Shown: piece after piece, positions 9,909 to 47,622 of the stretch | How positions within the stretch are numbered: the first letter of the stretch is position 1 | Layout of the letters: each line of letters starts with the position of its first letter | Notes under the pieces: model-generated | Database searches by the model: none | Seen by the model: only the letters and a program-made list of their open reading frames with translations | Told to the model about the DNA's origin: nothing | NCBI GenBank assembly: GCA_943789445.1 | Contig: CALSUC010000002.1 | Span: 12,256-76,255, forward strand | DNA length: 64,000 nt | Direction: 5' to 3' | Origin: an uncultured Gammaproteobacteria bacterium | GTDB taxonomy: Bacteria > Pseudomonadota > Gammaproteobacteria > UBA4575 | Made by a program: the position numbers and the translations under genes

Positions 9909-10047
9909 AAAGTAGCGATAAATAAAAGCCCTCACTAACGTTGTTGTTTGGTGAGGGCTTTTTTTTTGTAGTACAAGCAACGTATCATAAGTAATTACTC
10001 GGTAATGCCGAGGGCTACTAGTGATTGAATAAGATTGATACTGCCCT
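9909..10047. repeat. Copy 1 of an identical ~139-bp direct repeat forming the 3' flank of an adhesin gene. It contains a terminator.
   Basis: The string 'aaagtagcgataaataaaagccctcactaacgttgttgtttggtgagggcttttttttt...gattgatactgccct' is identical to 19169..19307. The flanks diverge immediately after (10048 'ttcggg' versus 19308 'aaacat'). Confidence 0.9.
9928..9967 (+). terminator. Rho-independent terminator of adhesin 1.
   Basis: Stem gccctcac(9928-9935)/gtgagggc(9951-9958) followed by a T9 run. Confidence 0.85.
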
Positions 10048-16876: not shown

Positions 16877-18220
16877 TTGTTGGGTCTGCTCCTGAATCGG
16901 GTAATAAACCGGTTGTGTTTGTATCAGAAGTTGGTGTGGACACGATTGGTAATAATATTTTTAAAACGGCGGCGACTGGCTGGTAATGCAGGCACCTTCT
17001 CGGATCAGGTCATCACTGCAGATGGCTCGGTATCGACTACGGTAGCTGAAACGAATACGCATCGTATGATTGGTCTTTCTGACAGCGATACCAATGTAAG
17101 CTTTACCTCGATTGATTACGCGATTTATCTGAGGAGCAATGGTGCGCTTGCGGTCTTTGAAAACGGCGCTAACAAGGGGGAGTTCGGTACTTATTCGAGT
17201 GGCGATGTACTGAGTGTTGAGCGCTTCGGCTCGACGATTACCTACCTGAAAAATGGCTCGGTATTCTACACCTCAACAGTTGCTTCGACGGGTGATTTGC
17301 ATGTGGATACCTCGTTGCATACGACAGGTGCTACATTGCAAAATGTGGTTATCAATAATGGCGAGTTGGTTAGCAGTAATAATTATGCGGTGAACACTCT
17401 GACGCCAACCATTAATATTGATGCGATTGCCACAGATAATGTTTTGGATTTCGTTGAAGATAATCACTCGTTGCTTGTCACCGGTACAACCACCAACGTA
17501 TCAGATGGGCAAGTGGTGACTGTGACTATCGCCGGTGTCGAGTATACGAGCAGTGTGACGGGTAATGTATGGGGCGTTAAGGTGCCGCAGGCGGTTGCTG
17601 CGGCGCTATCCTCAAGCGTTACGGTGGCTGTGAGTGTCAGTAACGCATCAGGCGTTAACGCAACGGCCAATACGACTTTCACTCACACTACTGATGAGCC
17701 TGTGGTCATTACTATCAGTGATAATGATATAGATTCATCAGAAACGGCCGTGGTTACCTTCCGGTTCAAGGAGGCTGTTACAGACTTCGAGCTTGCTGAT
17801 ATTAATGTGGATTCAGGCACCTTATCTAATCTTGTTAGCACGGATGGCGGTACAACCTTCACCGCGACCTTTACACCAACACCGGGTGTGAAGAGCGACG
17901 TCAGCAAAATCTCGATTGGTTCCAATTGGACGTATCAGTCGTCTGGTGCATCGCCTGTAGTATCAGACATCAAGGTCGCCTTTGAAAATGAAGTGGGTGT
18001 TGATGTAACTACTAATAATATTGTCAAAACAGGATTTGCTGGTTGGACTTCAGGTGCCTTTTCTGAGAATTCCCTGGCAGGGGATGGTTACGTTGCAACT
18101 ACGGTAGCTGAAACGAATACGCATCGTATGATTGGTCTTTCTGACAGCGATACCAATGTAAGCTTTGACACGATTGATTACGCGTTTATCTGCGTGCAAT
18201 GGTGCGCTTGTGGTCTTTGA
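16877..18220 (+). CDS. Adhesin 2 fragment ORF (447 aa) spanning the diverged repeat copies B, C', A'' and B'.
   Basis: ORF track. It is ~50% identical to the homogenised copies (TVAETNTHRMIGLSDSDTNVSF is retained). Confidence 0.5.
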   Translation: MLGLLLNRVINRLCLYQKLVWTRLVIIFLKRRRLAGNAGTFSDQVITADGSVSTTVAETNTHRMIGLSDSDTNVSFTSIDYAIYLRSNGALAVFENGANKGEFGTYSSGDVLSVERFGSTITYLKNGSVFYTSTVASTGDLHVDTSLHTTGATLQNVVINNGELVSSNNYAVNTLTPTINIDAIATDNVLDFVEDNHSLLVTGTTTNVSDGQVVTVTIAGVEYTSSVTGNVWGVKVPQAVAAALSSSVTVAVSVSNASGVNATANTTFTHTTDEPVVITISDNDIDSSETAVVTFRFKEAVTDFELADINVDSGTLSNLVSTDGGTTFTATFTPTPGVKSDVSKISIGSNWTYQSSGASPVVSDIKVAFENEVGVDVTTNNIVKTGFAGWTSGAFSENSLAGDGYVATTVAETNTHRMIGLSDSDTNVSFDTIDYAFICVQWCACGL

Positions 18221-18448
18221 AAACGGCATTAGCAAGGGGGCGTTCGGTAGCTATGCGACAGGCGATGTACTGAGTGTTCAGCGTACTGGCTCGACGATTA
18301 CCTACCTGAAAAATGGCTCGGTATTCTACACCTCAACAGTTGCTTCGACGGGTGATTTGCATGTGGATACCTCGTTGGATACGACAGGCAGTACATTAAA
18401 GAATATTGTGATCAGCGATGGAAGGCTTGCACCAGCAGCGATTACAGC

Positions 18449-19153
18449 GTGGATACGCAGTTTAGTCTTGAAAATGCTAGCGTGGCGGGTAATCAAGTTG
18501 TGCTCACCTTTGATGCGACGATTAATGCACTTAGCACTCCGTCACTTCAATCTTTTGATATTCAGGTTGATGGCGCGACCAGAAACGTTACGGCGATTTC
18601 CTTTTCGGGCAATACGGCTACGTTAACCATTGATGGAAAAGCGGTGGTTGATACTGATTCAGTCGAATTCTCTTATAGTCAGCTAGGTTCTGCTGGTTTT
18701 GAGAGTGCTGCGGGAGCTGTTGTTGCTAATAACAACATTGAGGCTGTGTTTGGCACCACAGGTAATAATGCTATTTCTGGAACCTCTGCCAGTGAATATG
18801 TGTTTGGTGGCAGTGGTAATGATACTATTACTGGTGGTGCTGGGAATGATATTCTGACAGGTGGCGCTGGTAGCGATACTTTTGATTACAACAACACTAC
18901 AGATGGCAGCGACACCATTACCGACTTTACCGTGGGGAGTGGTGGTGACAGCTTAGATTTACGTGACCTTTTAGATTACGCTAGTGGTGATACCTTAGCT
19001 GACTACATTGAATTGACAAACGATGGGACAGACGTCACCTTAAAAATAGATAAAGACGGGGGCGGTGATGAATTTACCAGCCCTGATGTAACAATTACTC
19101 TACAAGGGATCAATGATGCAGCAGGTTACTTTGGCATCACTAGAGACCGATAA
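18449..19153 (+). CDS. C-terminal fragment of adhesin 2. It carries a unique beta-rich region, RTX repeats and the T1SS C-terminal target domain.
   Basis: Contains GGSGNDTITGGAGNDILTGGAGSDTFDY and DSLDLRDLLDY. The stop is followed by the terminator copy. Confidence 0.7.
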   Translation: MDTQFSLENASVAGNQVVLTFDATINALSTPSLQSFDIQVDGATRNVTAISFSGNTATLTIDGKAVVDTDSVEFSYSQLGSAGFESAAGAVVANNNIEAVFGTTGNNAISGTSASEYVFGGSGNDTITGGAGNDILTGGAGSDTFDYNNTTDGSDTITDFTVGSGGDSLDLRDLLDYASGDTLADYIELTNDGTDVTLKIDKDGGGDEFTSPDVTITLQGINDAAGYFGITRDR

Positions 19154-25714: not shown

Positions 25715-26680
25715 TTAATCTTCACTAAGTGCACCAGAACAACTACTGCCCTGACCCGCAGTGCAGCCATAACAGTGTTGTCCAATCATAATTTCGGCAT
25801 TATCTAGACTGTTTTCTAATAGCATAGATAGATGCTTTTTCGATTGATCGGGGTTTTCTAGGGGCATCTCTAGCATCTGATTGAAGTCGCAGTCATATAA
25901 GTAGCCCTGCCAATCAACACTGATGGTGTCACGGCACATGACGTTGTCGATATTATCGATTTGGTGGGCATTTTTTAGCGTATCTAGATAACTATGAAAG
26001 TTACCCTTAGCCGCCAAGGTGCTGCCAAAACGCTTGATAGGCATGTTGGTGATGACAAATAACTGATTGAATTTTATAGAGAATCTTTCATCTAGCTGGG
26101 TTTTGTAATCCATTTCTAGGGCCGCTTGTGGTGGCGGTAATACGGCACCAATGGGGTTATACACTAGATGCAGGCGACGCTCGTTGTCGATGGCATAACC
26201 TAGGCTATTGAGTAGTTTAAGTGCCTCGATACTCTTGCTAAAAACACCTTTGCCACGCTGTAGGTCAACATTCAGCTCTGAGTAGCAGGGCAATGAGGCA
26301 ACCACCTCTACCTGTTGCTCGGCTAGAAATTCAGCAAGACCTTCTTCCCCTGGCTCAAATAGCACGGTGAGATTGCAGCGATCACGCACATTCAGCCCAG
26401 CCTGTCGGGCATGACGCACTAAGGCGCGAAATTGTGGGTGTAGCTCGGGTGCACCACCGGTTAGATCTAATAGTTTAAAGCGGCCGGAGGCGATCACCTT
26501 AAATAAGATCGCCATATTCTCATCATCCATCATCTCGGTACGTGTGGGACCGGCGTTGACGTGGCAGTGAACACAGCTTTGATTGCAACGATAACCCAGA
26601 TTGACCTGCAAAGTATCACTGGATTGTCTGCGGATTTGGGGGAAATCGCTGGGGAATAATAGGGGTTTAGTTTCGCGCAT
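25715..26680 (-). CDS. Radical SAM/Cys-rich domain protein of the ArsS family (TIGR04167-like, 'arsenosugar biosynthesis radical SAM protein'-type).
   Basis: N-terminal CNQSCVHCHV (a CxxxCxxC radical SAM cluster motif) and a C-terminal Cys-rich tail (C..C..HCYGCTAGQGSSCSG) typical of DUF3641. Confidence 0.75.
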   Translation of the reverse strand: MRETKPLLFPSDFPQIRRQSSDTLQVNLGYRCNQSCVHCHVNAGPTRTEMMDDENMAILFKVIASGRFKLLDLTGGAPELHPQFRALVRHARQAGLNVRDRCNLTVLFEPGEEGLAEFLAEQQVEVVASLPCYSELNVDLQRGKGVFSKSIEALKLLNSLGYAIDNERRLHLVYNPIGAVLPPPQAALEMDYKTQLDERFSIKFNQLFVITNMPIKRFGSTLAAKGNFHSYLDTLKNAHQIDNIDNVMCRDTISVDWQGYLYDCDFNQMLEMPLENPDQSKKHLSMLLENSLDNAEIMIGQHCYGCTAGQGSSCSGALSED

Positions 26681-26699
26681 AAGTTACGTTACTAGATCA

Positions 26700-28826
26700 C
26701 TAGCCTAAGCGCCATGCTTGATAGCGTTGTAGTAATTGTTTGGCTCGGTCGCTAAAGCGTTCGCGTCGCCATTTTCCAGCAACAAAGCGATTGATTTCAC
26801 TGCGACTTGGGTAGAGGTGGATGCTTTGTAGAATCTTGTTCAAACCTAGGCCGTGGGTTCTAGCGAGGACAAATTCATGGATCAGTTCGCTGGCGCCTTC
26901 TGACACTATCTGTACACCTAGTATCTTGTCGCTGTTAACTGGTGTTAAGACCTTAATAAAGCCTGAATCGTGCTCATCGGTGATGGCACGATCAATCTCA
27001 TCCATATCAAAGCGCGTAACCGTATAATCGATTTTTTGTTGTTTGGCGGCTTCTTCATTCAGGCCTAAGGAGGCTATCTCTGGATCGGTAAAGATCGCCA
27101 GCGGTACGTGATCTAGGCTGCAGCGAAAGCGCTTAAACGGGGCGAAGCTGGCGTTGGCTGCAGCGTACCAGCCTTGATGTGCAGCGACATGGGTGTAATT
27201 AAGTGGGCTGGTGACATCACCACAGGCATAGACATTATTAAAGCGTGTCTGTAGATAGTTGTTGCTGACTAGGCGTCCCTGTTCATTAGTTTCTAGGGCT
27301 AGGGCTTCTAGGCCAGTCAGGTTGGCTTGTCGCCCTACGGCTACTAGTAGGTGGCTGAACTCGACCTGTAGGCTGTTGCCATATTGTTCACCAATAAGGC
27401 GTGAACCTGCATCTGTTGTTTCATAACGCAGGCTTTTAAAGCCTGGGAACAGTTTCACACCATCGGCGATTAAGGCTTGTTCTACCACTGCTGCGAGTTC
27501 GGGGTCTTCACGGTTTAAGATATGCTCAGATGGAAAAATCATGCTGACTTCTGCACCTAGGCGTTGAAAAGCCTGCGCCAGTTCACAGCCTATCGGGCCA
27601 GCACCGATGATTAATAGCTGTTGCGGTAATGTCTGTAATGACCAAATATTATCGCTGGTGTAATAGTTGATCTCGCTGATGCCAGGTAAATCTAAGGTGT
27701 TGGGGCGTGCGCCAGTGGCGATGGTAATGTTGCGGGTATTGAGTACCTTGCCATTGACCTCAACCTGCCAAGGTGAGATGACTTTGGCCTGACCTTGGAT
27801 GCAATCGACTCCTAGTTCACGGTAGCGTTGGCGTGAGTCTTTTGGTGCGATGCGGGCGATTTTATTCATGATGCGTTGTCTAACATCACCAAACTGTAGC
27901 TGGTAGTCGACTTGGGCTACGCCATAGTGCTGCGCTTGATTCAAGCTATGTACGTATTTCGCACTGCGTAAGATCGATTTTGACGGTACACAGCCAGTAT
28001 TTAAGCAATCACCACCCATATCGGAGGCTTCAATTAAGGCAACTTTGGCTTGTAGCGTGGCACTGCTATAAGCGGCGACTAGGCCGCCGGCACCACCACC
28101 GATGACGATGTTGTGATAGTCAAACTGCTTGGGTCGTTGAAAACCTCGATAGGCCCTACGCTGGCGCAGGATCTGCATAAATTTGTTGGCGGTTAGTGGG
28201 AACAGGCCTAGTAATAAGAAACTAAGAATCAGCTTCAGCGAGAGGATATCCTGAGCTGATCGGATGCTAGCCAGCTGCACACCGGCATTTACATAGACCA
28301 TGGTCGCTGGCAGCATGCCGAGCTGGCTGACCCAATAATAAGTGCTTAGACGTATTGGCGTCATTGCGGTGACGACATTGACCAGGCCAAACGGGAACAG
28401 TGGGACCATGCGTAAGAAGAACAGATATAAGGCACCTTCTTCTTCAACCTTTTGATTAATCTTTTTTAAGGTCTCGGCATAGCGTGTTTGGATCCAGTCA
28501 CGGGCGATATAACGAGCGATCAAGAAGGCTAGACTAGCGCCAATAGTGGAGGCGAAGGAGACAATAAACAGGCCTTTGCTAAAGCCAAATATGGCACCTG
28601 CAGCTAGCGTCATGATGGCCGCCATCGGTAGGGAGAACGCCGTCACGATGACATAGAATGCAAAAAACAGGCTAGCAAATTGCACAGGCTGGTCGTGAAA
28701 TGCCTGCGCCAGTTCACTTTGCCGATCTTGCAGACCAGCGAGACTCCAATCAATGTTGGATGCTGAGAGTAAAATGAAGGTAAAGCAAGAGATAGCTGCA
28801 ATCAGTAAAAGAGCTTTTTTCATCAT
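26700..28826 (-). CDS. Bifunctional TVP38/TMEM64 (DedA-like) membrane domain fused to a class-I pyridine nucleotide-disulfide oxidoreductase (mercuric reductase/dihydrolipoamide dehydrogenase-like).
   Basis: The N-terminal ~220 aa are polytopic membrane. Then come a GGGAGG FAD motif, the redox-active disulfide GGDCLNTGCVPSK, a second GAGPIG NAD motif and a C-terminal dimerisation domain. It lies 19 bp upstream of the rSAM gene on the same strand. Confidence 0.8.
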   Translation of the reverse strand: MMKKALLLIAAISCFTFILLSASNIDWSLAGLQDRQSELAQAFHDQPVQFASLFFAFYVIVTAFSLPMAAIMTLAAGAIFGFSKGLFIVSFASTIGASLAFLIARYIARDWIQTRYAETLKKINQKVEEEGALYLFFLRMVPLFPFGLVNVVTAMTPIRLSTYYWVSQLGMLPATMVYVNAGVQLASIRSAQDILSLKLILSFLLLGLFPLTANKFMQILRQRRAYRGFQRPKQFDYHNIVIGGGAGGLVAAYSSATLQAKVALIEASDMGGDCLNTGCVPSKSILRSAKYVHSLNQAQHYGVAQVDYQLQFGDVRQRIMNKIARIAPKDSRQRYRELGVDCIQGQAKVISPWQVEVNGKVLNTRNITIATGARPNTLDLPGISEINYYTSDNIWSLQTLPQQLLIIGAGPIGCELAQAFQRLGAEVSMIFPSEHILNREDPELAAVVEQALIADGVKLFPGFKSLRYETTDAGSRLIGEQYGNSLQVEFSHLLVAVGRQANLTGLEALALETNEQGRLVSNNYLQTRFNNVYACGDVTSPLNYTHVAAHQGWYAAANASFAPFKRFRCSLDHVPLAIFTDPEIASLGLNEEAAKQQKIDYTVTRFDMDEIDRAITDEHDSGFIKVLTPVNSDKILGVQIVSEGASELIHEFVLARTHGLGLNKILQSIHLYPSRSEINRFVAGKWRRERFSDRAKQLLQRYQAWRLG

Positions 28827-33472: not shown

Positions 33473-34513
33473 TTAGTTGAGTATGAAGGGTCGCATGCGA
33501 CTGCTGAATGTTTTGACGTAACCTTTTTCTTCTCGCGTGATTAAGAGTACGGCCAGATCGTTTTCTTCGGCATAGGCATAAGCCTCTTGTGGCCCTAAGA
33601 CTAATAGTGCAGTAGCCCATGCATCGGCCACTGTAGTTGACTCATGTAGCACCGTGACCGAGGCCAAGTTATGTTGAACCGGGTAGCCTGTGCGAGGGTC
33701 GATCGTGTGTGAATAGCTCTGACCTTCATGCTCAAAGTAATTGCGATAGTCACCTGAAGTGGCAACGCCTAAATTATCTAGGCCGATGACAGCTTCCACG
33801 CTACGGCCTGCATGCATCGGTGTTTCTATACCTATACGCCAAGCAGCACCATGTTCGGCAATGCCCTTGGCCTTAATTTCCCCACCAATCTCGACCATGT
33901 AGTTTTTAACGCCAAAATTATCTAAGAGCATGGCCAGCTGGTCGACGCCATAGCCCTTGGCGATTGCCGATAAATCGACATAGACATTTTCTGCTGGCTT
34001 GAAAATACTAAGCGGTTGTTGTCGGGTTTGAATGCGATCCCAGCCCAAGGTCAGTCTTGCAATACGCACCTCAGTTGCACTAGGAAAGGCAAACCCTTCC
34101 AGCTTGGCACCAAAGCCCCATAAGTTTACTAGTGGCCCAACAGTGATATCAAAGGCACCCTTGCTGGCTTGGCTGACGCTGTAGGCACGATCTAAAACGT
34201 AGATCAGTTCGGCATCGGCAGCGAACCAACCACTATGGTCCTGCGCATTGAACAGGCTGAGTTGTGAGTCTGGGATATAGGTCGACATCAATTGGTTGAT
34301 CTCGGCGAGTCTTTGTTCTGCGGCTAGACGTACCGTTTTTATTTTTAGTGTGCTGGCCTGCCCATGCCACTGCATGGTGTAGCTGGTGCCCATGGTTTCA
34401 CCACTGACTTGTGGGCCATGGTTTTCTTTACCGCAGGCGCTGAGTAATAGCAGTAGGCCAAGTGCTGCAGTTAGCGCAAAGTGATTTCGAAATGAGGGCT
34501 TGCTAGGGGACAT
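33473..34513 (-). CDS. apbE: FAD:protein FMN transferase (ApbE family) lipoprotein.
   Basis: Lipobox LLSAC. Has the ApbE motifs GVATSGDYRNYFE and HTIDPRTGYP. Confidence 0.85.
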   Translation of the reverse strand: MSPSKPSFRNHFALTAALGLLLLLSACGKENHGPQVSGETMGTSYTMQWHGQASTLKIKTVRLAAEQRLAEINQLMSTYIPDSQLSLFNAQDHSGWFAADAELIYVLDRAYSVSQASKGAFDITVGPLVNLWGFGAKLEGFAFPSATEVRIARLTLGWDRIQTRQQPLSIFKPAENVYVDLSAIAKGYGVDQLAMLLDNFGVKNYMVEIGGEIKAKGIAEHGAAWRIGIETPMHAGRSVEAVIGLDNLGVATSGDYRNYFEHEGQSYSHTIDPRTGYPVQHNLASVTVLHESTTVADAWATALLVLGPQEAYAYAEENDLAVLLITREEKGYVKTFSSRMRPFILN

Positions 34514-35909: not shown

Positions 35910-36653
35910 TTACCAGTAATTTTCGGTGCTGATGCTACCTGGGGTACGTCTCAGGTTTTTGGTCAAGCCACGCTCTTGTAGCAGTTCACGCGTATCTTTC
36001 ACCATGTCTGGATTACCGCAGAGCATAATCTGCGACTTGCCTTCTTCGACCTTAATTCCAGCACGTTTTTCTAGTGAACCATTCTTAAATCCAGCTGGGA
36101 TACGTCCCGGTAGGCTGAAGTCGGTCTTTTCACGGCTGACGAAGGGGACATAGCAGAATTGATCAGGGTGTTTTGCACTGAGCTCATCAATCAGCTCGCG
36201 ATAAGCCAGTTCAGCGGCATTTCTTACAGCATGCACCAACACCAGTTTGTTGAAGCGTGTCCAAGCTTGATCGGTTTTTAGGATCGACAAGAACGGTCCA
36301 ATGCCGGTGCCGGTAGACAACATCCAAAGGTCTTCGCTTTCAGGGATTTCATCTAGGATCAGGAAACCATTCGGTTTTTTACCGAGGTAGACGTGATCAC
36401 CGGCCTTAAGCTCGGCCAGTCGCGGGGATAGGGCGCCTTCTGCGACATTGATGGAATAAAATTCATGGAAGCCCTCATCTGGTGCGCTGACGAAGGAATA
36501 GGGGCGGCCGATGATTTCATCATCAATTTCTAAGCCTAAACGTCCAAATTGGCCGGCCTTATAAGGCTGTACATCACCTTCTACACGTAGGCTGTAGAGA
36601 GTATCGGTCCAGTGGATATTCTCGATTACCTTGCCATCAATCCAATTCGACAT
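35910..36653 (-). CDS. fpr: Ferredoxin--NADP(+) reductase.
   Basis: Strongly collinear with E. coli Fpr (W.DGKV..I..WTD.L.SL..., RPYSF, LSPRLA.LK.GD, WMLSTGTGIGP). Confidence 0.85.
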   Translation of the reverse strand: MSNWIDGKVIENIHWTDTLYSLRVEGDVQPYKAGQFGRLGLEIDDEIIGRPYSFVSAPDEGFHEFYSINVAEGALSPRLAELKAGDHVYLGKKPNGFLILDEIPESEDLWMLSTGTGIGPFLSILKTDQAWTRFNKLVLVHAVRNAAELAYRELIDELSAKHPDQFCYVPFVSREKTDFSLPGRIPAGFKNGSLEKRAGIKVEEGKSQIMLCGNPDMVKDTRELLQERGLTKNLRRTPGSISTENYW

Positions 36654-37023
36654 ATTTGTTCTACCTTAGAGTGTCTCTTTTCAGCGCGTATCTTAACTAA
36701 GCCGAAGTGATTTTTGAACAATTCCCATGGGGTAGGCAGTTCATGTGCAAAACAAATACATTATGAGGGTAATTATTAAGAATGATTTCTAGTTGATGTT
36801 GTATATCGACTGGCACACATTTAGACGCCTATCTCGGAGTGTTCTATCACTTGTGATTCCGCTGAGTCGCTATCAAAATGGCTCGTGCTATGACAAAATG
36901 CGCAGGAATTTCGGTACAGCTTTACCCGCTGCGCCCTATCAGCAGAATTTATTGGCGCGTCGAGTTTCGACGGCAATAATTATAAGGCCCGCTCATTGTA
37001 AGCAGGGCTAACTTAACAACGAA
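36654..37023 (+). promoter_or_regulatory. A ~370-nt structured leader/promoter region upstream of the molybdoenzyme operon. It is a candidate cis-regulatory RNA (for example a Moco-type riboswitch), which I have not verified.
   Basis: The intergenic region is unusually long and has several perfect short hairpins (cgtcga/tcgacg, gcgcag..ctgcgc, ggcccgct..agcagggc). There is no convincing SD at the ATG. Confidence 0.25.
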
Positions 37024-39999
37024 ATGAAAGAGACAGCTATGGCCTCAACTTTTAAGGGACTACCAATCGCCCTCAACCTGCCGCAGTTCGAAAACCACGA
37101 GAAGCAAGAAGGAAAGTACACCACCTGTTATATGTGTGCTTGTCGCTGTGGTATCAAAGTAACTGTCGAAGATAACGAAGTACGATTTATCCAGGGTAAC
37201 AAGAACCATCCAGTGAATAAGGGTGTGCTCTGTGCCAAGGGTAATGCAGGCATTATGAAGCAAAAATCGCCGGCTAAATTACAGCAGCCGATGATGCGTA
37301 AGAAAGGCAGCGAGCGTGGTACCGGTGAGTTTGAGCCAGTATCATGGGATGTCGCGCTAGATTATTTATCAGAGCGTTTAGAAAAGATCCGTAATACTGA
37401 TCCTAAGAAGCTTGCATTCTTTACTGGTCGTGACCAGATGCAGGCTTTAAGTGGTCTTTGGGCACAACAGTACGGCACCATTAACTGGGCGGCCCATGGT
37501 GGTTTCTGTTCAGTCAATATGGCGGCAGCAGGACTCTACTCGATTGGTCATGCATTCTGGGAATTTGGTGATCCTGATTGGGATAACACTAAGTACTTCA
37601 TGCTTTGGGGCGTGGCCGAAGATCATGCATCCAATCCAATTAAAATTGGTTTAGAAAAGATTAAGCGCCGTGGCGCTAAGTTTGTCTCGATTAACCCAGT
37701 ACGTACGGGTTATCAGGCGATTGCCGATGAATGGGTGCCTATTAAGCCGGGTACTGATGCGATTCTCGCGCTGTCGATGATTCACGTTTTGATGAAGAAT
37801 GATTTATTCGATTGGGAATATTTGGTTCGATACACCAATTCACCTTACTTGGTTTACAACACACCAGGCGAAAGCACCGATGGTTTGATCTGTCGCGATG
37901 CTGAAGGCAATCCACAGTCTTGGGATCTTGAGAAAGAAGCCCTAGTGGATGGTAGTCTGCCTGAGATTAAGCCTGCTCTATTTGGTGAATACACTTCAGC
38001 CGACGGTAAGGCGCTGAAGACAGTATTTACACTATTAGCAGAACGCTACTTAGATGATCAGTACTCACCAGCAGAAGCCAGCAAAGTATGTGGTGTTGCA
38101 GCTGATGACATCGAACGCATGGCCTTAGAAATGGCGCATGTTGCGTTTGAAGAGACGATTGAGATTAATTGTGAATGGACTGACTGGGCCGGTCGTAAGC
38201 ACGACAAGTTCATTGGTCGTCCTGTGTCTATGCACGCGATGCGTGGTATTTCAGCGCATTCCAACGGCTTCCAAGCCTGTCGTGCGATTCACTTATTACA
38301 AATTATGTTGGGTTCAGTGGATGTTCCAGGTGGTCACTTGGCCAAGCCTCCATTCCCGAAACATATTGTGCCACCGATCAAGCCGGCCAAGCCGACTTCG
38401 CCGGGGCAGCCGCTTAACTCACCACCTTTAGGTTTCCCAACCTGTCCTGAAGATTTGGTTATCGATGATGATGGTAAGCCATTGCGAATCGATAAGGCCT
38501 ATTCATGGGATGCACCGATTGCTAATCATGGCTTGATGCATATGGTGATTACCAATGCGGTCAAAGGCGATCCCTACCCGATTGATACCCTGATCATCTT
38601 TATGGCGAACATGAGTTGGAACTCAACCATGAACACCAGCTCAGTGCGCGATATGCTGACCGAGAAAGATGAGAGCGGTGAAAAAGATGAGAATGGCGAC
38701 TATAAATACAAGCTACCGTTCTTAGTCGTAGCCGATGCCTTCCATTCTGAAATGACAGCCTTTGCTGACTTGATCCTTCCAGATACAACGTACTTAGAGC
38801 GATACGATACGATTTCGATTCTCGATCGTCCGATCTCTGAGCCTCACGCTGTCTGTGATGCGATTCGTGCGCCAGTGATTGAGCCTGATCGTGATGTACG
38901 ACCATGGCAGGAAGTGTTGGTTGATTTAGCGACTCGTCTGAAGTTCCCAGCCTTTACGAAGGAAGATGGTAGCCCGAAATATGAAGGCTATAACGATTTC
39001 GTTATTAATTATGAGAAGGCACCAGGTCTTGGCTTCCTCGCCGGTTGGCGTGGTGAAGACGGTAGCAAATCATTGCGTGGTGAGCCGAATCAAAACCAAT
39101 GGCAAGACTATATCGATAACGAATGTTTCTTTGAGCATAAGTTACCGAAGGAGCATCACTACTACCGCTTCGCTAATAAAGGGTATTTAGAGTTTGCCAA
39201 AGAGTCTGGCTTTATTGGTTCATCTAAGCCGATTATTATGGAGCTGTACTCTGAGTCCTTGCAGAAGTTCCGTCTTGCAGGTCAGGGTTTATATGATGGT
39301 CCTCAACCAAAGAATGATTACGATAAGCATCGCATGGTGACTTATTTTGATCCGCTACCGGATTACTATGAGCCGTTAGAGCAGCAAGCGACTTCATCGA
39401 CTGAATATCCGTTCTTTGCGATTACCCAGCGTCCAATGATGATGTATCACTCATGGGATTCGCAGAATGCCTGGTTACGTCAGATTTTGGCTCAAAACTA
39501 TATGTACATGAACCGCCAGAAAGCGGAAGAAATGGGTATTGTTGATCTGTCATGGATTTGGGTTGAGTCTGAAAATGGCAAGATCCGCGTTCAAGTAAAA
39601 TTGATGGAAGGTGTTGAGAGCAACACCATCTGGACGTGGAATGCGATTGGTAAACAACGAGGTGCTTGGGGATTAGATCCTACGGCGAACGAATCGAATG
39701 ATGGCTTCTTGCTGAATCATTTGATCAGTGAGCATCTACCGTCTAAGTCGGCCGATCGCGCAGTGACTAACTCTGATCCAATTACGGGGCAAGCAGCTTG
39801 GTATGATTTGCAAGTGAAGATCTATCCAGCGGCAGCAGGCGAAACAGGTACATGGCCTACTTTCGATACGATTAAGCCGATGCCAGGTGCAGAAAAGCCG
39901 GTGTCTAAGCTTCAATATCAAACACATAAAGCAGTTGGACTGCATCGTTCGATGCGCGACATTCTGACTCGCGGCAAGACTAAAAGGGATGATTCATGA
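37024..39999 (+). CDS. soeA: DMSO reductase-family (CISM) molybdopterin oxidoreductase catalytic subunit with no Tat signal. It is a candidate SoeA (cytoplasmic sulfite dehydrogenase large subunit).
   Basis: 991 aa. An N-terminal C-x2-C-x3-C-x27-C [4Fe-4S] motif (CYMCACRC...GVLCAKG) is present. There is no RR motif and no possible N-terminal extension, because an in-frame TAA sits 9 nt upstream. It is followed by an FeS subunit and a DmsC-type anchor, which is the architecture of SoeABC. Confidence 0.5.
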   Translation: MKETAMASTFKGLPIALNLPQFENHEKQEGKYTTCYMCACRCGIKVTVEDNEVRFIQGNKNHPVNKGVLCAKGNAGIMKQKSPAKLQQPMMRKKGSERGTGEFEPVSWDVALDYLSERLEKIRNTDPKKLAFFTGRDQMQALSGLWAQQYGTINWAAHGGFCSVNMAAAGLYSIGHAFWEFGDPDWDNTKYFMLWGVAEDHASNPIKIGLEKIKRRGAKFVSINPVRTGYQAIADEWVPIKPGTDAILALSMIHVLMKNDLFDWEYLVRYTNSPYLVYNTPGESTDGLICRDAEGNPQSWDLEKEALVDGSLPEIKPALFGEYTSADGKALKTVFTLLAERYLDDQYSPAEASKVCGVAADDIERMALEMAHVAFEETIEINCEWTDWAGRKHDKFIGRPVSMHAMRGISAHSNGFQACRAIHLLQIMLGSVDVPGGHLAKPPFPKHIVPPIKPAKPTSPGQPLNSPPLGFPTCPEDLVIDDDGKPLRIDKAYSWDAPIANHGLMHMVITNAVKGDPYPIDTLIIFMANMSWNSTMNTSSVRDMLTEKDESGEKDENGDYKYKLPFLVVADAFHSEMTAFADLILPDTTYLERYDTISILDRPISEPHAVCDAIRAPVIEPDRDVRPWQEVLVDLATRLKFPAFTKEDGSPKYEGYNDFVINYEKAPGLGFLAGWRGEDGSKSLRGEPNQNQWQDYIDNECFFEHKLPKEHHYYRFANKGYLEFAKESGFIGSSKPIIMELYSESLQKFRLAGQGLYDGPQPKNDYDKHRMVTYFDPLPDYYEPLEQQATSSTEYPFFAITQRPMMMYHSWDSQNAWLRQILAQNYMYMNRQKAEEMGIVDLSWIWVESENGKIRVQVKLMEGVESNTIWTWNAIGKQRGAWGLDPTANESNDGFLLNHLISEHLPSKSADRAVTNSDPITGQAAWYDLQVKIYPAAAGETGTWPTFDTIKPMPGAEKPVSKLQYQTHKAVGLHRSMRDILTRGKTKRDDS

Positions 40000-40688
40000 A
40001 ATTAGGATTAGTTGTCGATCTAGACACTTGTGTCGGCTGTAATGCCTGTGCAGTTGCGTGTAAGCAGTGGAATACTTCGGGTACCACTGGGCCGTTAACT
40101 GATTTGGAACCTTACGGCAAAGACCCAACGGGTGTTTGGTTTAACCGTATTCGTAACTATGAGCTGGGCGACTACCCAGATAACAAGACTGTGCATTTCC
40201 CAATGTCTTGTATGCATTGCGAAGATGCGGCTTGTGTCACGGTATGTCCTACAGGCGCTTCTTATAAGCGTGAAGAAGACGGTATCGTTTTAGTCGATCA
40301 AGATAAATGTATGGGTTGTAACCTCTGTGCATGGGCCTGTCCTTATGGCGCACGTGAGCTTGATCCTGAAGAAGGCGTGATGAAGAAGTGCACCCTTTGT
40401 GTCGATCGAATTTATGACGAAGCCTTGCCAGAAGATGAGCGTCAACCAGCCTGTGTTATGACCTGTCCTGCACATGCACGATTCTTTGGTGACTTTGATG
40501 ATCCAAACTCAGAAGTTTCTAGACTCTCTCGTGAGCGTGGTGGTGAACATTTAATGCCAGAGCTTGGTTACAAGCCGGTGAATACTTATCTACCACCGCG
40601 TAATAAGCCAAATATTCCAACTTACAAAAACGAAACTAATCCAATTGAAAAAGTGAAAGATTGGGTTAACCGTTTAGTTGCACGATAA
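39996..40688 (+). CDS. soeB: Four-cluster 4Fe-4S ferredoxin-type subunit (DmsB-like) with no Tat signal. Candidate SoeB.
   Basis: Has CxxCxxCxxxC groups (CVGCNAC, CMHCEDAAC, CMGCNLCAWAC, CTLC..). It overlaps the catalytic-subunit gene by 4 bp. Confidence 0.5.
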   Translation: MKLGLVVDLDTCVGCNACAVACKQWNTSGTTGPLTDLEPYGKDPTGVWFNRIRNYELGDYPDNKTVHFPMSCMHCEDAACVTVCPTGASYKREEDGIVLVDQDKCMGCNLCAWACPYGARELDPEEGVMKKCTLCVDRIYDEALPEDERQPACVMTCPAHARFFGDFDDPNSEVSRLSRERGGEHLMPELGYKPVNTYLPPRNKPNIPTYKNETNPIEKVKDWVNRLVAR

Positions 40689-40700
40689 AAAGGAATCCAG

Positions 40701-41645
40701 ATGCATCCAGCATTCTCAGTTATATTTTTTACGGTCACCTCAGGTGCCGGCTATGGTTTGATCGCAATCACTGCAATCTACAGTGCTTTTGATTTCTCCC
40801 AGCCTATGACAGGTGCGCAAACATTGATGTTATCAGCGGTTGCCTTAGCCTTGATTACCAGCGGCCTGATTTCTTCTACTTTTCACTTGGCGAATCCAAA
40901 GAATGCATGGCGTGCGTTTAGTCGTGTGCGTACTTCGTGGTTGGCGCGTGAGGGTTTATTAGCGATCTTGTTCTACCCAATCGTTATGCTTTATGTCTAC
41001 TTAGTGTGGCGTGGTGTTGATGCAAGTTCCTCAACAGCGATGACCACCTTGGCATTGATTACCGGTGTATGGGCGATTGTAACGGTGTTCTCAACGGGCA
41101 TGATTTACGCTTCATTGAAGACGATTCGACAATGGAATAATGCATTGACCCCAGTGAACTACATCAGCCTAGGCTTAATGTTAGGCGGCTTGTTGTTCTC
41201 ATGGTTGTTGTCTTTGTCTGGCAATGTGTCGGCTAACCTGACTATGGTTGCAAGCTACATGGTTGTGATCGCAGCGACGATTAAGATCGTTTATTTCTTT
41301 TGGATCGGAACGCCAGCAGGCCCAACTATTAATACGGCAACCTCGTTTACTGCACGGACAGTAAGGTTGTTAGATGTAGGTCATACCGCAGGCACCTTCT
41401 TAACCGATGAGTTTGGTTATCAAGTTGCGCGTGATCGCCTCGTTGCATTACGTTGGATTGCGATAATCTTAGGCTTTGTGCTGCCATCATTGATCATTTG
41501 GTTCGGTCTGGGTGAGGGCGACAATACCTTAATGCTAGGTGCTGCTGTGATTAGCGCCTTTGCTGGTGTTGCGGTTGAGCGGTGGTTGTTCTTTGCCGAA
41601 GCTCGCCATGTGGTGAATCTATACCACGGTGCGCAACAGTGCTAA
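40701..41645 (+). CDS. soeC: DmsC/NrfD-type integral membrane quinone-interacting anchor subunit. Candidate SoeC.
   Basis: 314 aa with ~8 TM helices. The N-terminal FFTV..GAG..IAI resembles DmsC. Confidence 0.5.
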   Translation: MHPAFSVIFFTVTSGAGYGLIAITAIYSAFDFSQPMTGAQTLMLSAVALALITSGLISSTFHLANPKNAWRAFSRVRTSWLAREGLLAILFYPIVMLYVYLVWRGVDASSSTAMTTLALITGVWAIVTVFSTGMIYASLKTIRQWNNALTPVNYISLGLMLGGLLFSWLLSLSGNVSANLTMVASYMVVIAATIKIVYFFWIGTPAGPTINTATSFTARTVRLLDVGHTAGTFLTDEFGYQVARDRLVALRWIAIILGFVLPSLIIWFGLGEGDNTLMLGAAVISAFAGVAVERWLFFAEARHVVNLYHGAQQC

Positions 41646-41675
41646 CAAGGCGGTAATCAATCCTTGTTAGAACCT

Positions 41676-41706
41676 AAAAGGCGAGTCAATGACTCGCCTT
41701 TTTTGT
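41676..41706. terminator. Bidirectional rho-independent terminator shared by the molybdoenzyme operon (+) and the Rieske gene (-).
   Basis: 'aaaaggcgagtcaatgactcgccttttttg': a stem ggcgagtc/gactcgcc flanked by an A-run and a T-run. Confidence 0.8.
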
Positions 41707-41730
41707 GTCCATCTACTTTTTATCTGGGTG

Positions 41731-42048
41731 CTAGTTTAGGGCGAGCCAAATCTCATCGTCCTGGATTGTAACCGCATAGGTCTGTAGGGCTTCATCCGCA
41801 GGGTCTTCCGACGGCTCACCATCAACGACACTAAACCAGCTGCCATGTAAGGTGCACTTGACCTTGTCACCACGTAGACAGCCTAAGGCTAGAGAAGAGT
41901 CTTCGTGGGTGCAGGTGTCATCCACTGCATAGATGGTGCCTTCGACATTGGCTAATAAGATCGGGGCTCGGCCGGGCATGCAAATCTTCTTTGTCGTTCC
42001 CGCTGTGACTTCAGCCAATTTGGCTGCAAATGTGTTTTTGTTTTCCAT
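41731..42048 (-). CDS. Small Rieske [2Fe-2S] ferredoxin.
   Basis: Has the CTH..(x)..CLHGSWF Rieske ligand boxes (CTHEDSSLALGC...CTLHGSWF). 105 aa. Confidence 0.75.
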   Translation of the reverse strand: MENKNTFAAKLAEVTAGTTKKICMPGRAPILLANVEGTIYAVDDTCTHEDSSLALGCLRGDKVKCTLHGSWFSVVDGEPSEDPADEALQTYAVTIQDDEIWLALN

Positions 42049-42232: not shown

Positions 42233-42463
42233 ATGCCTTACTTTGTATTTCACCTCGTACGCGATGGCCGTATGCGTTTAGACGAGATTAATCTCGTGGA
42301 TCAGTTTGATGCCTATAAAGAGGCCAAACAATTTGCTCGTGCGCAACGTGAGCTCGATACCGGTAAAGAAATTAAAATCATGTTCGAAGAAGATGCATCG
42401 ATGGCCGAGAGTAAGCTGGCAGAGCAACGCGATGCACCTATTCTGAGGGAATGGGAAAAATAA
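42233..42463 (+). CDS. Hypothetical small protein (76 aa).
   Basis: ORF with no recognisable motif. It is divergent from the Rieske gene. Confidence 0.4.
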   Translation: MPYFVFHLVRDGRMRLDEINLVDQFDAYKEAKQFARAQRELDTGKEIKIMFEEDASMAESKLAEQRDAPILREWEK

Positions 42464-42470
42464 CTTAGGC

Positions 42471-42932
42471 ATGGACGAGACCCACTATCGCTCAACCTAT
42501 GCTGAGATCAACCCGATTAAATGTGCCTTTGAAAAGGCAATTAATTCGCGTGTCTGTAATTGTTCGAAGTCATCCCGTTTTAACCTTGCTGATCGTGAAG
42601 GAGTGGCCTGTGAATCTGCCGCCAGTCATGGCCTGTGTCAGGAGCTATTAGAGCTACTGCGAGAAAAGGCACGCTTTGCCTTGCAGCAAACCCAAGTCGA
42701 TGGGCCATTACCACATAATGCTGAAATTAAGATTCAGTGTGGTGGCGTGAAGGGCTTAATCGAGCTGCTCAAGGGATTGCATCCTGATCAGACAAATGCG
42801 GCAGAAGACGATGTCTATGCCGTGATCCAGCAGGCACTAGGCGACTTTGAACGCCTTAATGCCCTGCCTTTCAGTCAAATCATGCAACAAGTCACAGCCT
42901 ATCAAGGGCGCAAGCGGCGCGGGGCTAAATAG
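42471..42932 (+). CDS. Hypothetical protein (153 aa).
   Basis: ORF only. Confidence 0.4.
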   Translation: MDETHYRSTYAEINPIKCAFEKAINSRVCNCSKSSRFNLADREGVACESAASHGLCQELLELLREKARFALQQTQVDGPLPHNAEIKIQCGGVKGLIELLKGLHPDQTNAAEDDVYAVIQQALGDFERLNALPFSQIMQQVTAYQGRKRRGAK

Positions 42933-44446: not shown

Positions 44447-45295
44447 TTAAAATACTGAAGAGCTTAGTTCGTTAACCGCTGAAAGCATCTCTGGATCATC
44501 ACTAAGGGCTTGAGATATTGAGCTCCTACAGGCCGTTACTGGGTTAATGCCAGTAGCGATTAATTTTCCAGCATGTACCAATAGACGGGTACTAGCGCCT
44601 TCATCTAAACCACTGCCTTTCAAGTTGCGTGTCATCTGTGCAAACCTCACCAGCTGTTTAGCGGTTACATTATCAACCCCGGTCTCGGTTTCAATAATCT
44701 TTTGCTCAGTGGCGGCATCTGGATAATCAAATTCTAAGGCAACAAACCGTTGTCGAGTACTTTGCTTTAGGTCTTTTAAGACGCTTTGATAGCCAGGGTT
44801 ATAAGAGATCGCCATACAGAAGTCTTCTGGTGCCTCTAATAATTCGCCCAGCTTCTCGATGGGTAATACACGGCGATCATCACACAGCGGGTGAATGACG
44901 ACAGTGGTATCTTTTCGTGCCTCAACAATCTCATCTAAGTAACAAATGCTGCCGGTACGGACGGCACGTGCGAGTGGGCCATCGACCCAAACGGTTTCGC
45001 CACCGGTCACTAGATAGCGGCCGACCAAGTCAGAGGCGGTTAAGTCATCATGACAGGAGACGGTAATCAGTGGTCTTTGCAGACGCCAGCCGATGTATTC
45101 CATGAAGCGTGTCTTACCACAGCCGGTAGGCCCTTTCAGTAAAACAGGGAGTTTGTTTTTATAGGCGGCCTCAAAGACTTCAATCTCGTCAGCGACTGGC
45201 TCGTAATAAGGCTCGTCAGTAACAAAATATTCTTCGGGCTTATAGCTTTTTGCAATGTTCTTGGCATCCATTTCGGTATTCACGCTGATATTCAT
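44447..45295 (-). CDS. CbbQ/NirQ/NorQ family AAA+ (MoxR-class) ATPase.
   Basis: Walker [14 protein letters not shown] and Walker B ICYLDEI. It is ~270 aa core, collinear with CbbQ/NorQ. Confidence 0.8.
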
Positions 45296-45389
45296 GTGCC
45301 AGCCAGCTTACCCGTATATAAGGCCCGTGCAAGTTTAGGTGTGCACGGACGATATACAGGTTTTGTTCTACAGGATGCTAAGGGGCAGA

Positions 45390-46037
45390 CTAAGTCTGTA
45401 GGTAGATAGTGTCACCATCAAGAGTCACGTCACCACTCTTCTTTAGATCTTGGATGGTGCGACTAACCGATTCTCTCGAACAGCCTATAAGACTGGCAAG
45501 TTCACGATGCGTAGCAAAGTTAGCCACTTTTTTGCCAGCCACTTCTTGTGCGTTGTTGCGTAAAGCCCAAAGTACACGCTGATGGATGCTGCCCAATGCG
45601 ATCTCTTTCAGGTGCTGTGAGATGTTCGCAATCTCTGAGGAGAGCCGTGTGGCAATACAGTGCATGAAGTCAGGGTGATCTGCGTAAAACTGGCTGAAGT
45701 CAGCATGCTGGATAGTGAGGATGTTGCAGGGTTCTTTGGTGATCACGCTGGCGAACTGTTTGCCATCATTTAACCAAGCGGTTTCACCAAAGGATTCGCC
45801 TTGGCTTAACTTATATAGGGTGACTTCTTTGCCTTGCTGGTTTTCTTTAAAGACCCTGACAGTCCCTTTTAGGATGAAGTAGACCGACTGTAAGATGTCG
45901 CCATCCATACAGATGATGGTGTTTTTACGTAGCGCTCGAATACTACTGCGCTTGGCTAGTGGTTGTAAGCATTCAACACTATAGCGTTTAAAACATTGAG
46001 TGCGTTGTAGGTCAAAGGTTAGGAGATCTATAGTCAT
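45390..46037 (-). CDS. Crp/Fnr family transcriptional regulator (Dnr/NnrR-like; lacks the FNR N-terminal Cys cluster).
   Basis: cNMP-binding beta-roll plus a C-terminal HTH (RELASLIGCSRESVSRTI). Confidence 0.75.
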   Translation of the reverse strand: MTIDLLTFDLQRTQCFKRYSVECLQPLAKRSSIRALRKNTIICMDGDILQSVYFILKGTVRVFKENQQGKEVTLYKLSQGESFGETAWLNDGKQFASVITKEPCNILTIQHADFSQFYADHPDFMHCIATRLSSEIANISQHLKEIALGSIHQRVLWALRNNAQEVAGKKVANFATHRELASLIGCSRESVSRTIQDLKKSGDVTLDGDTIYLQT

Positions 46038-46372: not shown

Positions 46373-47622
46373 ATGAAACAACTAGTTAAAGCTTCTGCTC
46401 TAGCGCTAAGCCTAGTGGCTGCATCTGCAGCACACGCAGGTGGTGTTGCTGGTGGCAATGCAAACTCAAACTGGACAATCTATGGCTGGCAGAACTGGTC
46501 TTTAGAGTCTGTTGATAATGGTGCACGTGATACAACTCGCATTAACAACAACGCTGCAAACATCGGCTTCTCAGCTGCTGTTGACACTGGCATGATGGTC
46601 GGTGGTGAAGCAATGATGGTTAATTTCCGTTGTGAGCAGTTCACTTTCCATAACCGTTTCTAATGGCTCATACTAACTGGTGTAACCGTAACTCAAAGAT
46701 CTCTTTAAGCGGTTCTTTCGGTGAGATCATGTTCGGCCAATGGTTACTTCCATACAACGAAATGGTTGCACAATGGGTTGATCCATTCTACGACGCAGGC
46801 GCTGATTCACATACTTCACTGATGGGTAACATCGGTTATGGTAATCAGTTCTTCTACAATGGTTCATTTGGTCAGTCTGATTCTTTCAACCGTCGTCAAG
46901 AAGAAGTGATCCAGTACTTCAGCCCTAACATGAACGGTGTAACTTTCCGTATTGCTACAACTAACGCTAACCAGTCTGGTTCTGGCGAAGAAGTTACTAA
47001 AACAGGTGCAGGTGGCGCTACTGAACTAGATCCACGTATCTGGTCTATGGGTGTTGCGTACGAAACTACGCTAGATTCAGGCGACAACGTCTGGTTAGCA
47101 GCAACTTACCAGTCTCACGACGAATGGTCTGCTGTAACTTACTCTTGTGATGATTCAGACGATAAGTCTTACCGTCTAGCGGGTCGTTACATCAAGCAAT
47201 GGGGCCAAGGTCAATCAACTCAAGTTTCTGCAATGTGGGAAACTCTTGAGTACGATTGGGAAGGCTGTGCAAGCGCTCCTGCTGCTATGTCTGCTGTTAT
47301 GACTGGAAACAATGTAGACGTGGAACGTGATGCATTCATGCTTTCTGCTAAGCAGACTTTCGGTAACGGTTTCGACATGCGCCTTTCTTACATGGACGCA
47401 GACGAGCTAGAAGTTAACGGTGACGATCTTAACAATTCTGATGCTACGGCTTACAACATCGGTATGTTCTACACAATGCCGGCTGGCACAGAGCTACGTT
47501 TAACCTACTCTAAGGTTGATAACGAAGACGCTTCTAACTACGACTTCGGTATTGGTGGTTCAGGCGCAGCAGTTGGTGAAGACGCCAAGATGTGGGCACT
47601 AGGTATTGTTCAGTGGTTCTAA
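46373..47622 (+). pseudogene. Outer-membrane general porin (Neisseria-type, Porin_4) interrupted by a -1 frameshift near 46610-46660. This is either a pseudogene or a sequencing error.
   Basis: ORF 46373..46663 gives the signal peptide plus the porin N-terminus (WTIYGWQNWSLESVDNG). ORF 46663..47622 continues in another frame and ends with the C-terminal ...WALGIVQWF (terminal Phe). There is a GAGAGGA RBS. Confidence 0.6.

Follow-up and report, generated by a model that had tools for sequence, protein, structure and literature searches.

Which enzyme is encoded by a leaderless three-gene molybdoenzyme operon of an uncultured marine gammaproteobacterium, and do the redox genes that surround it belong to the same system? 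Both questions are raised by a 64,000-nucleotide (nt) stretch of DNA from a bacterium of the UBA4575 lineage (GenBank assembly GCA_943789445.1, contig CALSUC010000002.1, positions 12,256 to 76,255), hereafter called the window. Between positions 37,024 and 42,048, the window carries genes for a catalytic molybdenum subunit, an iron-sulfur (FeS) subunit, and a membrane anchor, followed by a convergent gene for a Rieske ferredoxin. An earlier note on this DNA had proposed that the enzyme is SoeABC, and that the Rieske ferredoxin forms a local electron-transfer neighborhood with the products of fpr and apbE. Our analysis indicates that the three genes very probably encode SoeABC, a membrane-bound sulfite:quinone oxidoreductase that would face the cytoplasm. 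The Rieske gene and fpr, however, are not part of the Soe enzyme.

The soeABC operon and its products

The operon and its candidate signals consist of the following features.

36952..36980, + strand: candidate soeA promoter of the sigma-70 type, TTGGCG-17-AATAAT, from a consensus scan
37039..39999, + strand: soeA, catalytic subunit with a molybdenum-bis(pyranopterin guanine dinucleotide) (Mo-bisPGD) center, 986 amino acids (aa), or 991 aa from the ATG at 37024; without a signal peptide
39996..40688, + strand: soeB, FeS subunit, 230 aa; Pfam Fer4_11 and 4Fe-4S dicluster domains
40701..41645, + strand: soeC, haem-free NrfD/DmsC-type membrane anchor, 314 aa; Pfam DmsC, 4e-24; eight predicted transmembrane (TM) helices; predicted N-in/C-in
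41676..41704, either strand: bidirectional intrinsic terminator with an 8-bp GC-rich stem and a 3-nt loop, flanked by A4 and T6

The three genes are adjacent and co-directional, and their order (molybdopterin subunit, FeS subunit, NrfD/PsrC-like anchor) is that of SoeABC. The 991-aa open reading frame (ORF) at 37024-39999 matches the Pfam domains Molybdop_Fe4S4 (PF04879), Molybdopterin (PF00384), and Molydop_binding (PF01568). Its translation begins with MKETAMASTFKGLPIALNLPQFENHEKQEGKYTTCYMCACRCG and contains the FS0 cysteine pattern C35-x2-C38-x3-C42-x27-C70 without a twin arginine (RR), as the earlier note had described. Residues C35, C38, C40, C42, C70, and C162 are invariant in 121 SoeA sequences. 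The nearest solved structure is that of Thermus PsrA (2vpw, 3e-41 overall), and SoeA C162 aligns with PsrA Cys173, which is reported to be the molybdenum ligand in the PsrABC structure. The subunit therefore has the FS0 motif, the Mo-bisPGD domains, and the cysteine at the Mo-ligand position that characterize the catalytic subunit of SoeABC. A short acidic/lysine-rich insertion, KDENGDYKY, is present at SoeA residues ∼555-563 (about 38686-38712). It is confined to this strain cluster and is absent in 119 of the 121 aligned homologs.

An in-frame TAA at 37009-37011 precedes the soeA start. The earlier note had used this stop to exclude a missed leader peptide, and the argument holds, although the distance to the ATG at 37024 is 12 nt and not the 9 nt that had been given. 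No ATG, GTG, or TTG occurs within these 12 nt. In two strains with 98% identical SoeA, the ATG at 37024 is replaced by ATA, and the ATG at 37039 is conserved as a start. This second ATG was chosen by gene callers on 21 metagenome contigs, and it is preceded by the Shine-Dalgarno sequence AAGAGA. For these reasons, the product is most likely a 986-aa protein that starts at 37039, five codons downstream of 37024, and begins MASTFKG. The choice between the two start codons leaves the argument about twin-arginine translocation (Tat) unchanged.

SoeB contains 16 cysteines in four ferredoxin-type groups, and therefore four [4Fe-4S] clusters are implied. Because these groups begin at residue 12, there is no room for a leader on this subunit either. 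The absence of a leader from the FeS subunit is not diagnostic, given that the beta subunits of Tat-exported enzymes such as DmsB are also made without one.

The third subunit matches Pfam DmsC, in keeping with its earlier description as a DmsC/NrfD-like anchor. A hydropathy scan of SoeC yields eight TM helices, with 14 lysine plus arginine (K+R) residues on the loops of the N-terminal side versus 1 on the opposite side. The same analysis of Escherichia coli DmsC gives counts of 4 versus 8, which is the reversed polarity. Eight helices are also predicted for 64 of 74 SoeC orthologs, and the mean K+R counts in these 64 are 16.8 versus 1.4. Under the positive-inside rule, these counts predict a cytoplasmic location for the two termini of SoeC and for its long loops. 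An inverted insertion of SoeC has been postulated because SoeAB are thought to face the N-side (PMC8076601), and the charge distribution predicted here agrees with that proposal. In addition, all 75 SoeC sequences that were compared have H62, S79, W80, R83, and E84. Quinone-site residues listed for Aquifex aeolicus SoeC are His65, Ser82, and Glu87 (PMC8076601). From residue positions compared without an alignment, we infer that H62, S79, and E84 of the window protein correspond to these three at a constant offset of 3.

The soeA and soeB reading frames overlap at ATGA, which suggests translational coupling, and soeC starts 12 nt past the end of soeB. Upstream, the block holding the candidate promoter is conserved in strains with 97-100% identical SoeA. 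A perfect palindrome, CGTCGAGTTTCGACG (CGTCGA-GTT-TCGACG), lies at 36958-36972 between the -35 and -10 elements of this candidate promoter. It has at most one mismatch in the same strains and may be an operator. Downstream, a perfect 8-bp hairpin of the sequence A4-GGCGAGTC-AAT-GACTCGCC-T6 stands between soeC and the convergent Rieske gene. The 85-nt spacer between these two genes has a folding energy of -24.3 kcal/mol (z = -3.4 vs. shuffles). The terminator was found by folding; a consensus terminator scan overlooked it because of the 3-nt loop and the extended A/T pairing. Hairpin and folding score together confirm a terminator common to soeC and the 105-aa Rieske gene, as had been claimed. 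With its own candidate promoter and terminator, soeABC is a self-contained unit.

Family membership, cellular side, and substrate

Family placement was tested by means of the cutoffs of curated hidden Markov models and by a search of 50%-identity representatives. Relatives were drawn from two sets. A protein search with SoeA returned 8000 matches, and the best 120 of these, which were analyzed, are 69-100% identical over 95-99% of the length. A scan of GTDB species genomes supplied the closest 80 soeA loci, in which SoeA identity is 63-80% over almost the full length; Allochromatium vinosum is not in these 80. In this second set, soeB directly follows soeA in 77 of the 80 loci (67-91% identity) and soeC follows soeB in 74 (40-66% identity). 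At least three of the loci without a detected soeC end too early to contain it. Named organisms among the loci are Thermithiobacillus, Acidithiobacillus, Thioalkalivibrio, Ectothiorhodospira, Thiohalospira, Acidiferrobacter, and Leucothrix, together with Granulosicoccus, Thiomargarita, Candidatus Albibeggiatoa, Amphritea, Pontibacterium, and Motiliproteus.

Several of these relatives connect the window to organisms in which soeABC has been assigned in the literature. SoeA is 66-74% identical to its homologs from Thioalkalivibrio, Acidithiobacillus, Thiohalospira, Leucothrix, and Acidiferrobacter. The genes were assigned in all 75 Thioalkalivibrio strains studied, with ADC63403.1-ADC63401.1 of A. 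vinosum as queries (PMC6382920). A. vinosum SoeABC was likewise the reference for the assignments in Acidithiobacillus (PMC6335251) and in Thiohalospira, Leucothrix, and Acidiferrobacter (PMC6397845).

In the public assembly collection, 65 indexed blocks contain the identical SoeA sequence, and both ENA and JGI metagenome assemblies are represented among the 21 contigs that were read. JGI and TARA ocean metagenome contigs also carry near-identical loci. Relative to strains at 90-95% nucleotide identity, dN/dS (the ratio of nonsynonymous to synonymous substitution rates) is 0.013-0.025 for soeA, 0.011-0.022 for soeB, and 0.04-0.07 for soeC. These ratios show strong purifying selection on all three genes, and the operon is certainly functional.

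The absence of a Tat leader extends beyond the window. None of the 120 SoeA homologs has RR before the FS0 motif, and their N-terminal extensions are hydrophilic and 17-50 residues long. RR dipeptides do occur in the conceptual upstream translation of 14 related loci. These were rejected as Tat motifs, given that they precede any start codon, fall into untranslated GC-rich stretches, and come without a hydrophobic region. The edge of the family was sought with phmmer, in an exhaustive search that covered 1.84 billion representatives at 50% identity. Full-length representatives at 64% and 56% identity share the motif TTCYMCACRCGI and have no leader. The next full-length representatives (P0370, P0423, and P0473), at 33-39% identity, open with classical Tat leaders, in this order MSIRRRHFLQGAG, LTRRDFLKITGAA, and SRRDFAKLVAG. 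Two of them, P0370 and P0423, have a differing FS0 sequence, CxxCLGRC, and no FS0-type cysteine motif was detected in P0473. SoeA is thus placed by sequence similarity well inside a Tat-less clade, set apart from its Tat-dependent relatives. Clustering with a Tat-dependent clade, or RR leaders in orthologs, had been named beforehand as outcomes that would count against SoeABC, and neither was observed.

These data bear on the possibility that the enzyme is a periplasmic, Tat-exported member of the DMSO-reductase family (Dms-, Psr-, Ttr-, or Arr-like) with a leader that was overlooked through a wrong start or an assembly error. Such an origin would fit the Pfam DmsC match of the anchor and the matches of the beta subunit to the DmsB, NrfC, and ArrB models at 1e-40. 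It conflicts with the TAA 12 nt upstream and the lack of an alternative start in between, with the identical N-terminus on 21 independent metagenome contigs, and with the absence of a leader in 120 homologs. Furthermore, the SoeC topology is opposite to that of DmsC, and every curated family model scores below its cutoff. A missed leader has next to no probability, and as far as sequence analysis permits this explanation is already refuted. Membership among the DMSO and selenate reductases of the DmsABC/Ynf type was rejected on similar grounds: The DmsA/YnfE model TIGR02166 reaches 133 bits against a cutoff of 778, RR is absent, and the charge bias of the anchor is reversed. The TtrA, ArrA, NarG, and NapA models, like that for DmsA/YnfE, are all far under cutoff. 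The best NCBIfam model for SoeA is PhsA, with 203 bits versus a cutoff of 694; with this score and no RR, membership in the Psr/Phs polysulfide-thiosulfate reductases was rejected as well.

If the three genes encode SoeABC, then sulfite would be oxidized to sulfate at the cytoplasmic Mo-bisPGD center of SoeA. Judging from the family, electrons would pass from the Mo center through FS0 and the four SoeB clusters to a quinone site in SoeC helices 1-4, near the cytoplasmic face, and the resulting quinol would feed the respiratory chain. The sulfite could come from inorganic sulfur oxidation or from organosulfur degradation. The lineage has the gene for formaldehyde-activating enzyme (fae) but no obvious sulfur-oxidation genes nearby, and therefore the enzyme may act on sulfite that organosulfur compounds supply to the cytoplasm.

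Several observations weigh against the SoeABC assignment. None of the 26 matching NCBIfam models is above its cutoff, and there is no SoeA model among these matches. The alignment with PsrA is confident over ∼270 N-terminal residues (the N-terminal third, 121 bits) and weak elsewhere, and a PDB search found no solved SoeABC structure. The link to experimentally studied SoeA proteins (Alvin_2491, aq_1234, and SPO3559) is indirect, through orthologs assigned in the literature, and this is the main caveat. We know of no published evidence for the family beyond A. vinosum genetics and A. aeolicus biochemistry. Finally, the 64-kb window contains no dsr, sHdr, sox, xsc, sulfonate-desulfonation, methanesulfonate-monooxygenase, or other sulfite-producing genes, nor are there methylotrophy genes among its remaining ORFs. 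Pathways that yield cytoplasmic sulfite, such as rDsr, sHdr, or sulfonate desulfonation, usually accompany soeABC but do not strictly define the family.

Alternatively, the enzyme might mainly use another sulfur substrate or run reductively, acting for instance as a sulfur, polysulfide, or tetrathionate reductase that faces the cytoplasm. The closest structure and the best NCBIfam model both belong to polysulfide/thiosulfate reductases (PsrA 2vpw, 3e-41; PhsA, 203 bits), and no sulfite source is visible in the window. The Aquifex complex now named SoeABC was reportedly first described as a sulfur reductase, which also speaks for a reductase. However, only the N-terminal third strongly resembles Psr/Phs, the score stays far under the family cutoff (203 vs. 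694 bits), and the Psr, Phs, and Ttr enzymes are Tat-exported and face the periplasm, unlike the window enzyme. Moreover, the genes are 64-80% identical to those of aerobic sulfur oxidizers in which soeABC accompanies dsr or sHdr (PMC6397845). We therefore consider a different substrate or a reductive role unlikely. The assignment to SoeABC made in the earlier note is upheld by the gene order, the domains, the Tat-less homologs, the anchor polarity, and the 63-80% identity to the closest 80 loci.

SoeABC is already well known, as is its design without a Tat leader and with the active side toward the cytoplasm (PMC8076601, PMC6397845, PMC4334477). The enzyme is routinely recognized in sulfur oxidizers and marine heterotrophs, and this copy has every family hallmark that was tested in the sequence, so the result matters little beyond annotation. 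Its modest use is that it documents soeABC in an abundant uncultured lineage of pelagic gammaproteobacteria.

The Rieske gene, fpr, and other neighbors

Three nearby genes had been taken to suggest electron transfer around the molybdoenzyme.

41731..42048, - strand: Rieske [2Fe-2S] ferredoxin, 105 aa; Pfam Rieske; C46, H48, C65, H68
35910..36653, - strand: fpr, ferredoxin-NADP+ reductase; NF008178, 8.5e-88, 294 bits, under the 390-bit model cutoff
33473..34513, - strand: apbE, 53% conserved; three unrelated genes stand between apbE and soeABC

Both fpr and apbE are indeed present close to soeABC, at 35910-36653 and 33473-34513. The Rieske protein belongs to a highly conserved set of homologs that share the motif DDTCTHEDSSLxLGCL...CTLHGS. 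A ring-hydroxylating dioxygenase ferredoxin of the HcaC type was rejected for this protein, which scores 80 bits against a cutoff of 113; no oxygenase is encoded nearby in the window or in the relatives. On the far side of the Rieske gene, two divergent small ORFs of 76 aa (42233-42463) and 153 aa (42471-42932) are conserved and have no Pfam match.

The neighbors of the Rieske gene were surveyed in a metagenome scan that returned 80 loci. In ∼14 loci with a Rieske identity of 50-66%, the next gene downstream is fpr, which has the same orientation and is 6-84 nt away; soeABC is absent. In another ∼9 loci of the same identity range, fpr lies 0.8-1.0 kb downstream with a DUF4126 gene in between, again without soeABC. 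At Rieske identities of at least 65%, soeCBA is found antisense between the Rieske gene and fpr (or DUF4126-fpr), which then stand 5.1-6.3 kb apart. The DUF4126 gene is absent from the window. The adjacent Rieske-fpr pair occurs in many marine bacteria without soeABC (loci L089, L090, and L115-L150). In one relative (L098), what is left of soeC between the Rieske gene and DUF4126-fpr is a frameshifted 3' part (8938-9334, - strand), and the soeAB genes are absent. This pattern indicates a secondary loss of the soe cassette.

The reverse comparison gives a matching picture. Among the 80 GTDB soeABC loci, homologs of the Rieske gene, fpr, fae, and a sixA-like gene, as well as close apbE homologs, are found near soeABC only in the 8 closest relatives (77-80% SoeA identity), in which soeC and the Rieske gene are spaced by about 0.5 to 2.7 kb. 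The other 72 loci have neither the Rieske gene nor fpr nearby. By these gene orders, Rieske-fpr is an older and widespread pair with the Rieske gene as its upstream member, and the soeABC cassette has been inserted between the two genes in this lineage alone. Their proximity reflects shared synteny, a historical accident, and is no evidence of coupling. The Rieske protein presumably acts with Fpr.

The same data bear on whether SoeABC, the Rieske ferredoxin, and Fpr (with ApbE) might constitute one electron-transfer module that, for example, exchanges electrons between the molybdoenzyme and NADPH. In favor of such a module are the short distances between the genes, the terminator that soeC has in common with the Rieske gene, and the persistence of the arrangement throughout the clade with 77-100% SoeA identity. 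In Granulosicoccus, moreover, an ApbE-family gene lies 16 nt past soeC. Yet soeABC is missing from ∼23 loci in which a Rieske gene at 50-66% identity is followed by fpr on the same strand, 72 of the 80 soeABC loci lack Rieske and fpr neighbors, and in the window soeABC is antisense to both genes and lies behind a terminator. The L098 relative has lost soeAB and still retains the Rieske gene, DUF4126, and fpr. In the published model, SoeABC requires neither a flavin nor a ferredoxin partner (PMC8076601). A common module is accordingly very improbable. The earlier view of the Rieske gene as an "orphan" tied to the molybdoenzyme is not borne out, as it is the upstream partner of fpr in many other genomes (gap 6-84 nt). 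The proposed local electron-transfer neighborhood fares no better, with only the 8 closest of 80 loci having the Rieske gene, fpr, fae, or apbE nearby. This case shows that a functional-looking neighborhood can arise when a cassette is inserted into an unrelated conserved gene pair, here Rieske-fpr.

ApbE is a flavin transferase, and we know of no role for it with a flavin-free enzyme. Granulosicoccus is the only other lineage with an ApbE-family gene near soeABC. In four of its loci (L030, L035, L037, and L047), a distant member of this family follows soeC after 16 nt on the same strand and is itself followed by a DUF3570 gene. The copy in L035 (12583-13473) matches the Pfam family at 1.9e-63.

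The fae gene of the window is 91-96% conserved among relatives. C1-sulfonate oxygenases release formaldehyde together with sulfite. One could imagine that the fae/fpr/soeABC/Rieske cluster arose when SoeABC was recruited beside Fae and a Rieske-Fpr electron supply. Together these would handle formaldehyde and sulfite released by a C1-organosulfur monooxygenase (acting on methanesulfonate, dimethylsulfone, or compounds derived from dimethyl sulfide) that is encoded elsewhere in the genome. The support for a Fae-SoeABC link is limited to adjacency in one clade, and we regard this scenario as a long shot. If true, it would link pelagic methylated-sulfur turnover to quinone-level energy conservation.

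The window also encodes a PPi-dependent phosphofructokinase, three rhodanese-domain proteins, a CbbQ-type AAA ATPase, and a CRP/FNR regulator. The gene for the CbbQ/NorQ-type ATPase (44447-46037, - strand) is 87-95% conserved among relatives and adjoins the gene for the CRP/FNR-family regulator; no adjacent CbbO/NorD-like partner was detected. Downstream of the regulator is a porin gene (46663-47622, + strand) whose length and frame vary in near-identical strains (L081-L086), with called products of ∼220 to ∼350 aa. This variation suggests a hypervariable or phase-variable surface protein. At 25715-28826 (- strand), the gene for a radical-SAM/DUF3641 protein (321 aa) adjoins that for a 708-aa protein in which an N-terminal VTT/DedA membrane domain is fused to a pyridine-nucleotide-disulfide oxidoreductase (MerA/Lpd-like), which is an unusual pairing. 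Positions 1-19153 (+ strand) hold a very long array of near-identical coding repeats, in which Big/cadherin-like modules alternate with a second module and the reading frame is split into dozens of fragments. RTX-like GGxGxD ends are located near 9357-9908 and 18449-19153. This array represents one giant adhesin gene of the RTX type, or two, which are either degraded or wrongly assembled across the repeats.

Comparison with known systems

The reference for the family is SoeABC of A. vinosum, given as Alvin_2491-2489 where PMC6382920 and PMC6397845 cite Dahl et al. 2013. The window operon shares with it the order soeA-soeB-soeC, a molybdopterin subunit with FS0, a four-cluster FeS subunit, an NrfD-type anchor, the lack of signal peptides, and the cytoplasmic orientation. 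Against SoeA from Ectothiorhodospira and from Thioalkalivibrio, the window protein reaches 68-72% identity; the genes of the latter genus have been assigned as orthologs of those of A. vinosum. The host differs from A. vinosum in being an uncultured gammaproteobacterium of the marine pelagic zone. No dsr, sox, or sHdr genes are visible in its 64 kb, and its SoeA has the small lineage-specific insertion around residues 555-563.

SoeABC of A. aeolicus (aq_1234/1232/1231; Boughanemi et al. 2020, as cited in PMC8076601) agrees with the window enzyme in subunit composition and in the predicted inversion of SoeC. It belongs to a distant phylum, and its identity to the window proteins is presumably much lower. 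A parallel in setting is Ruegeria pomeroyi, a marine heterotroph whose SoeABC (SPO3559-3557) disposes of sulfite from organosulfonates (PMC4334477). Its soe genes are listed beside pta (SPO3560) and tauR (SPO3562), a taurine-degradation context (PMC4334477). The neighbors in the window are fpr, the Rieske gene, fae, and transporter genes, none of which is for sulfonate degradation.

Two exported enzymes complete the comparison. Thermus thermophilus PsrABC (2VPZ/2VPW) has the FS0 motif, the cysteine at the Mo-ligand position (C173 = C162), and the architecture of A and B subunits with an NrfD-type C subunit. Window SoeA is ∼220 residues longer, and PsrA is Tat-exported and faces the periplasm. 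With E. coli DmsABC, the window enzyme shares an anchor of the Pfam DmsC family with eight TM helices, and SoeB is similar to DmsB (1e-41). However, DmsA begins with a 45-residue RR leader (SRRGLV), and the charge bias of DmsC is 4 versus 8, whereas that of SoeC is 14 versus 1.

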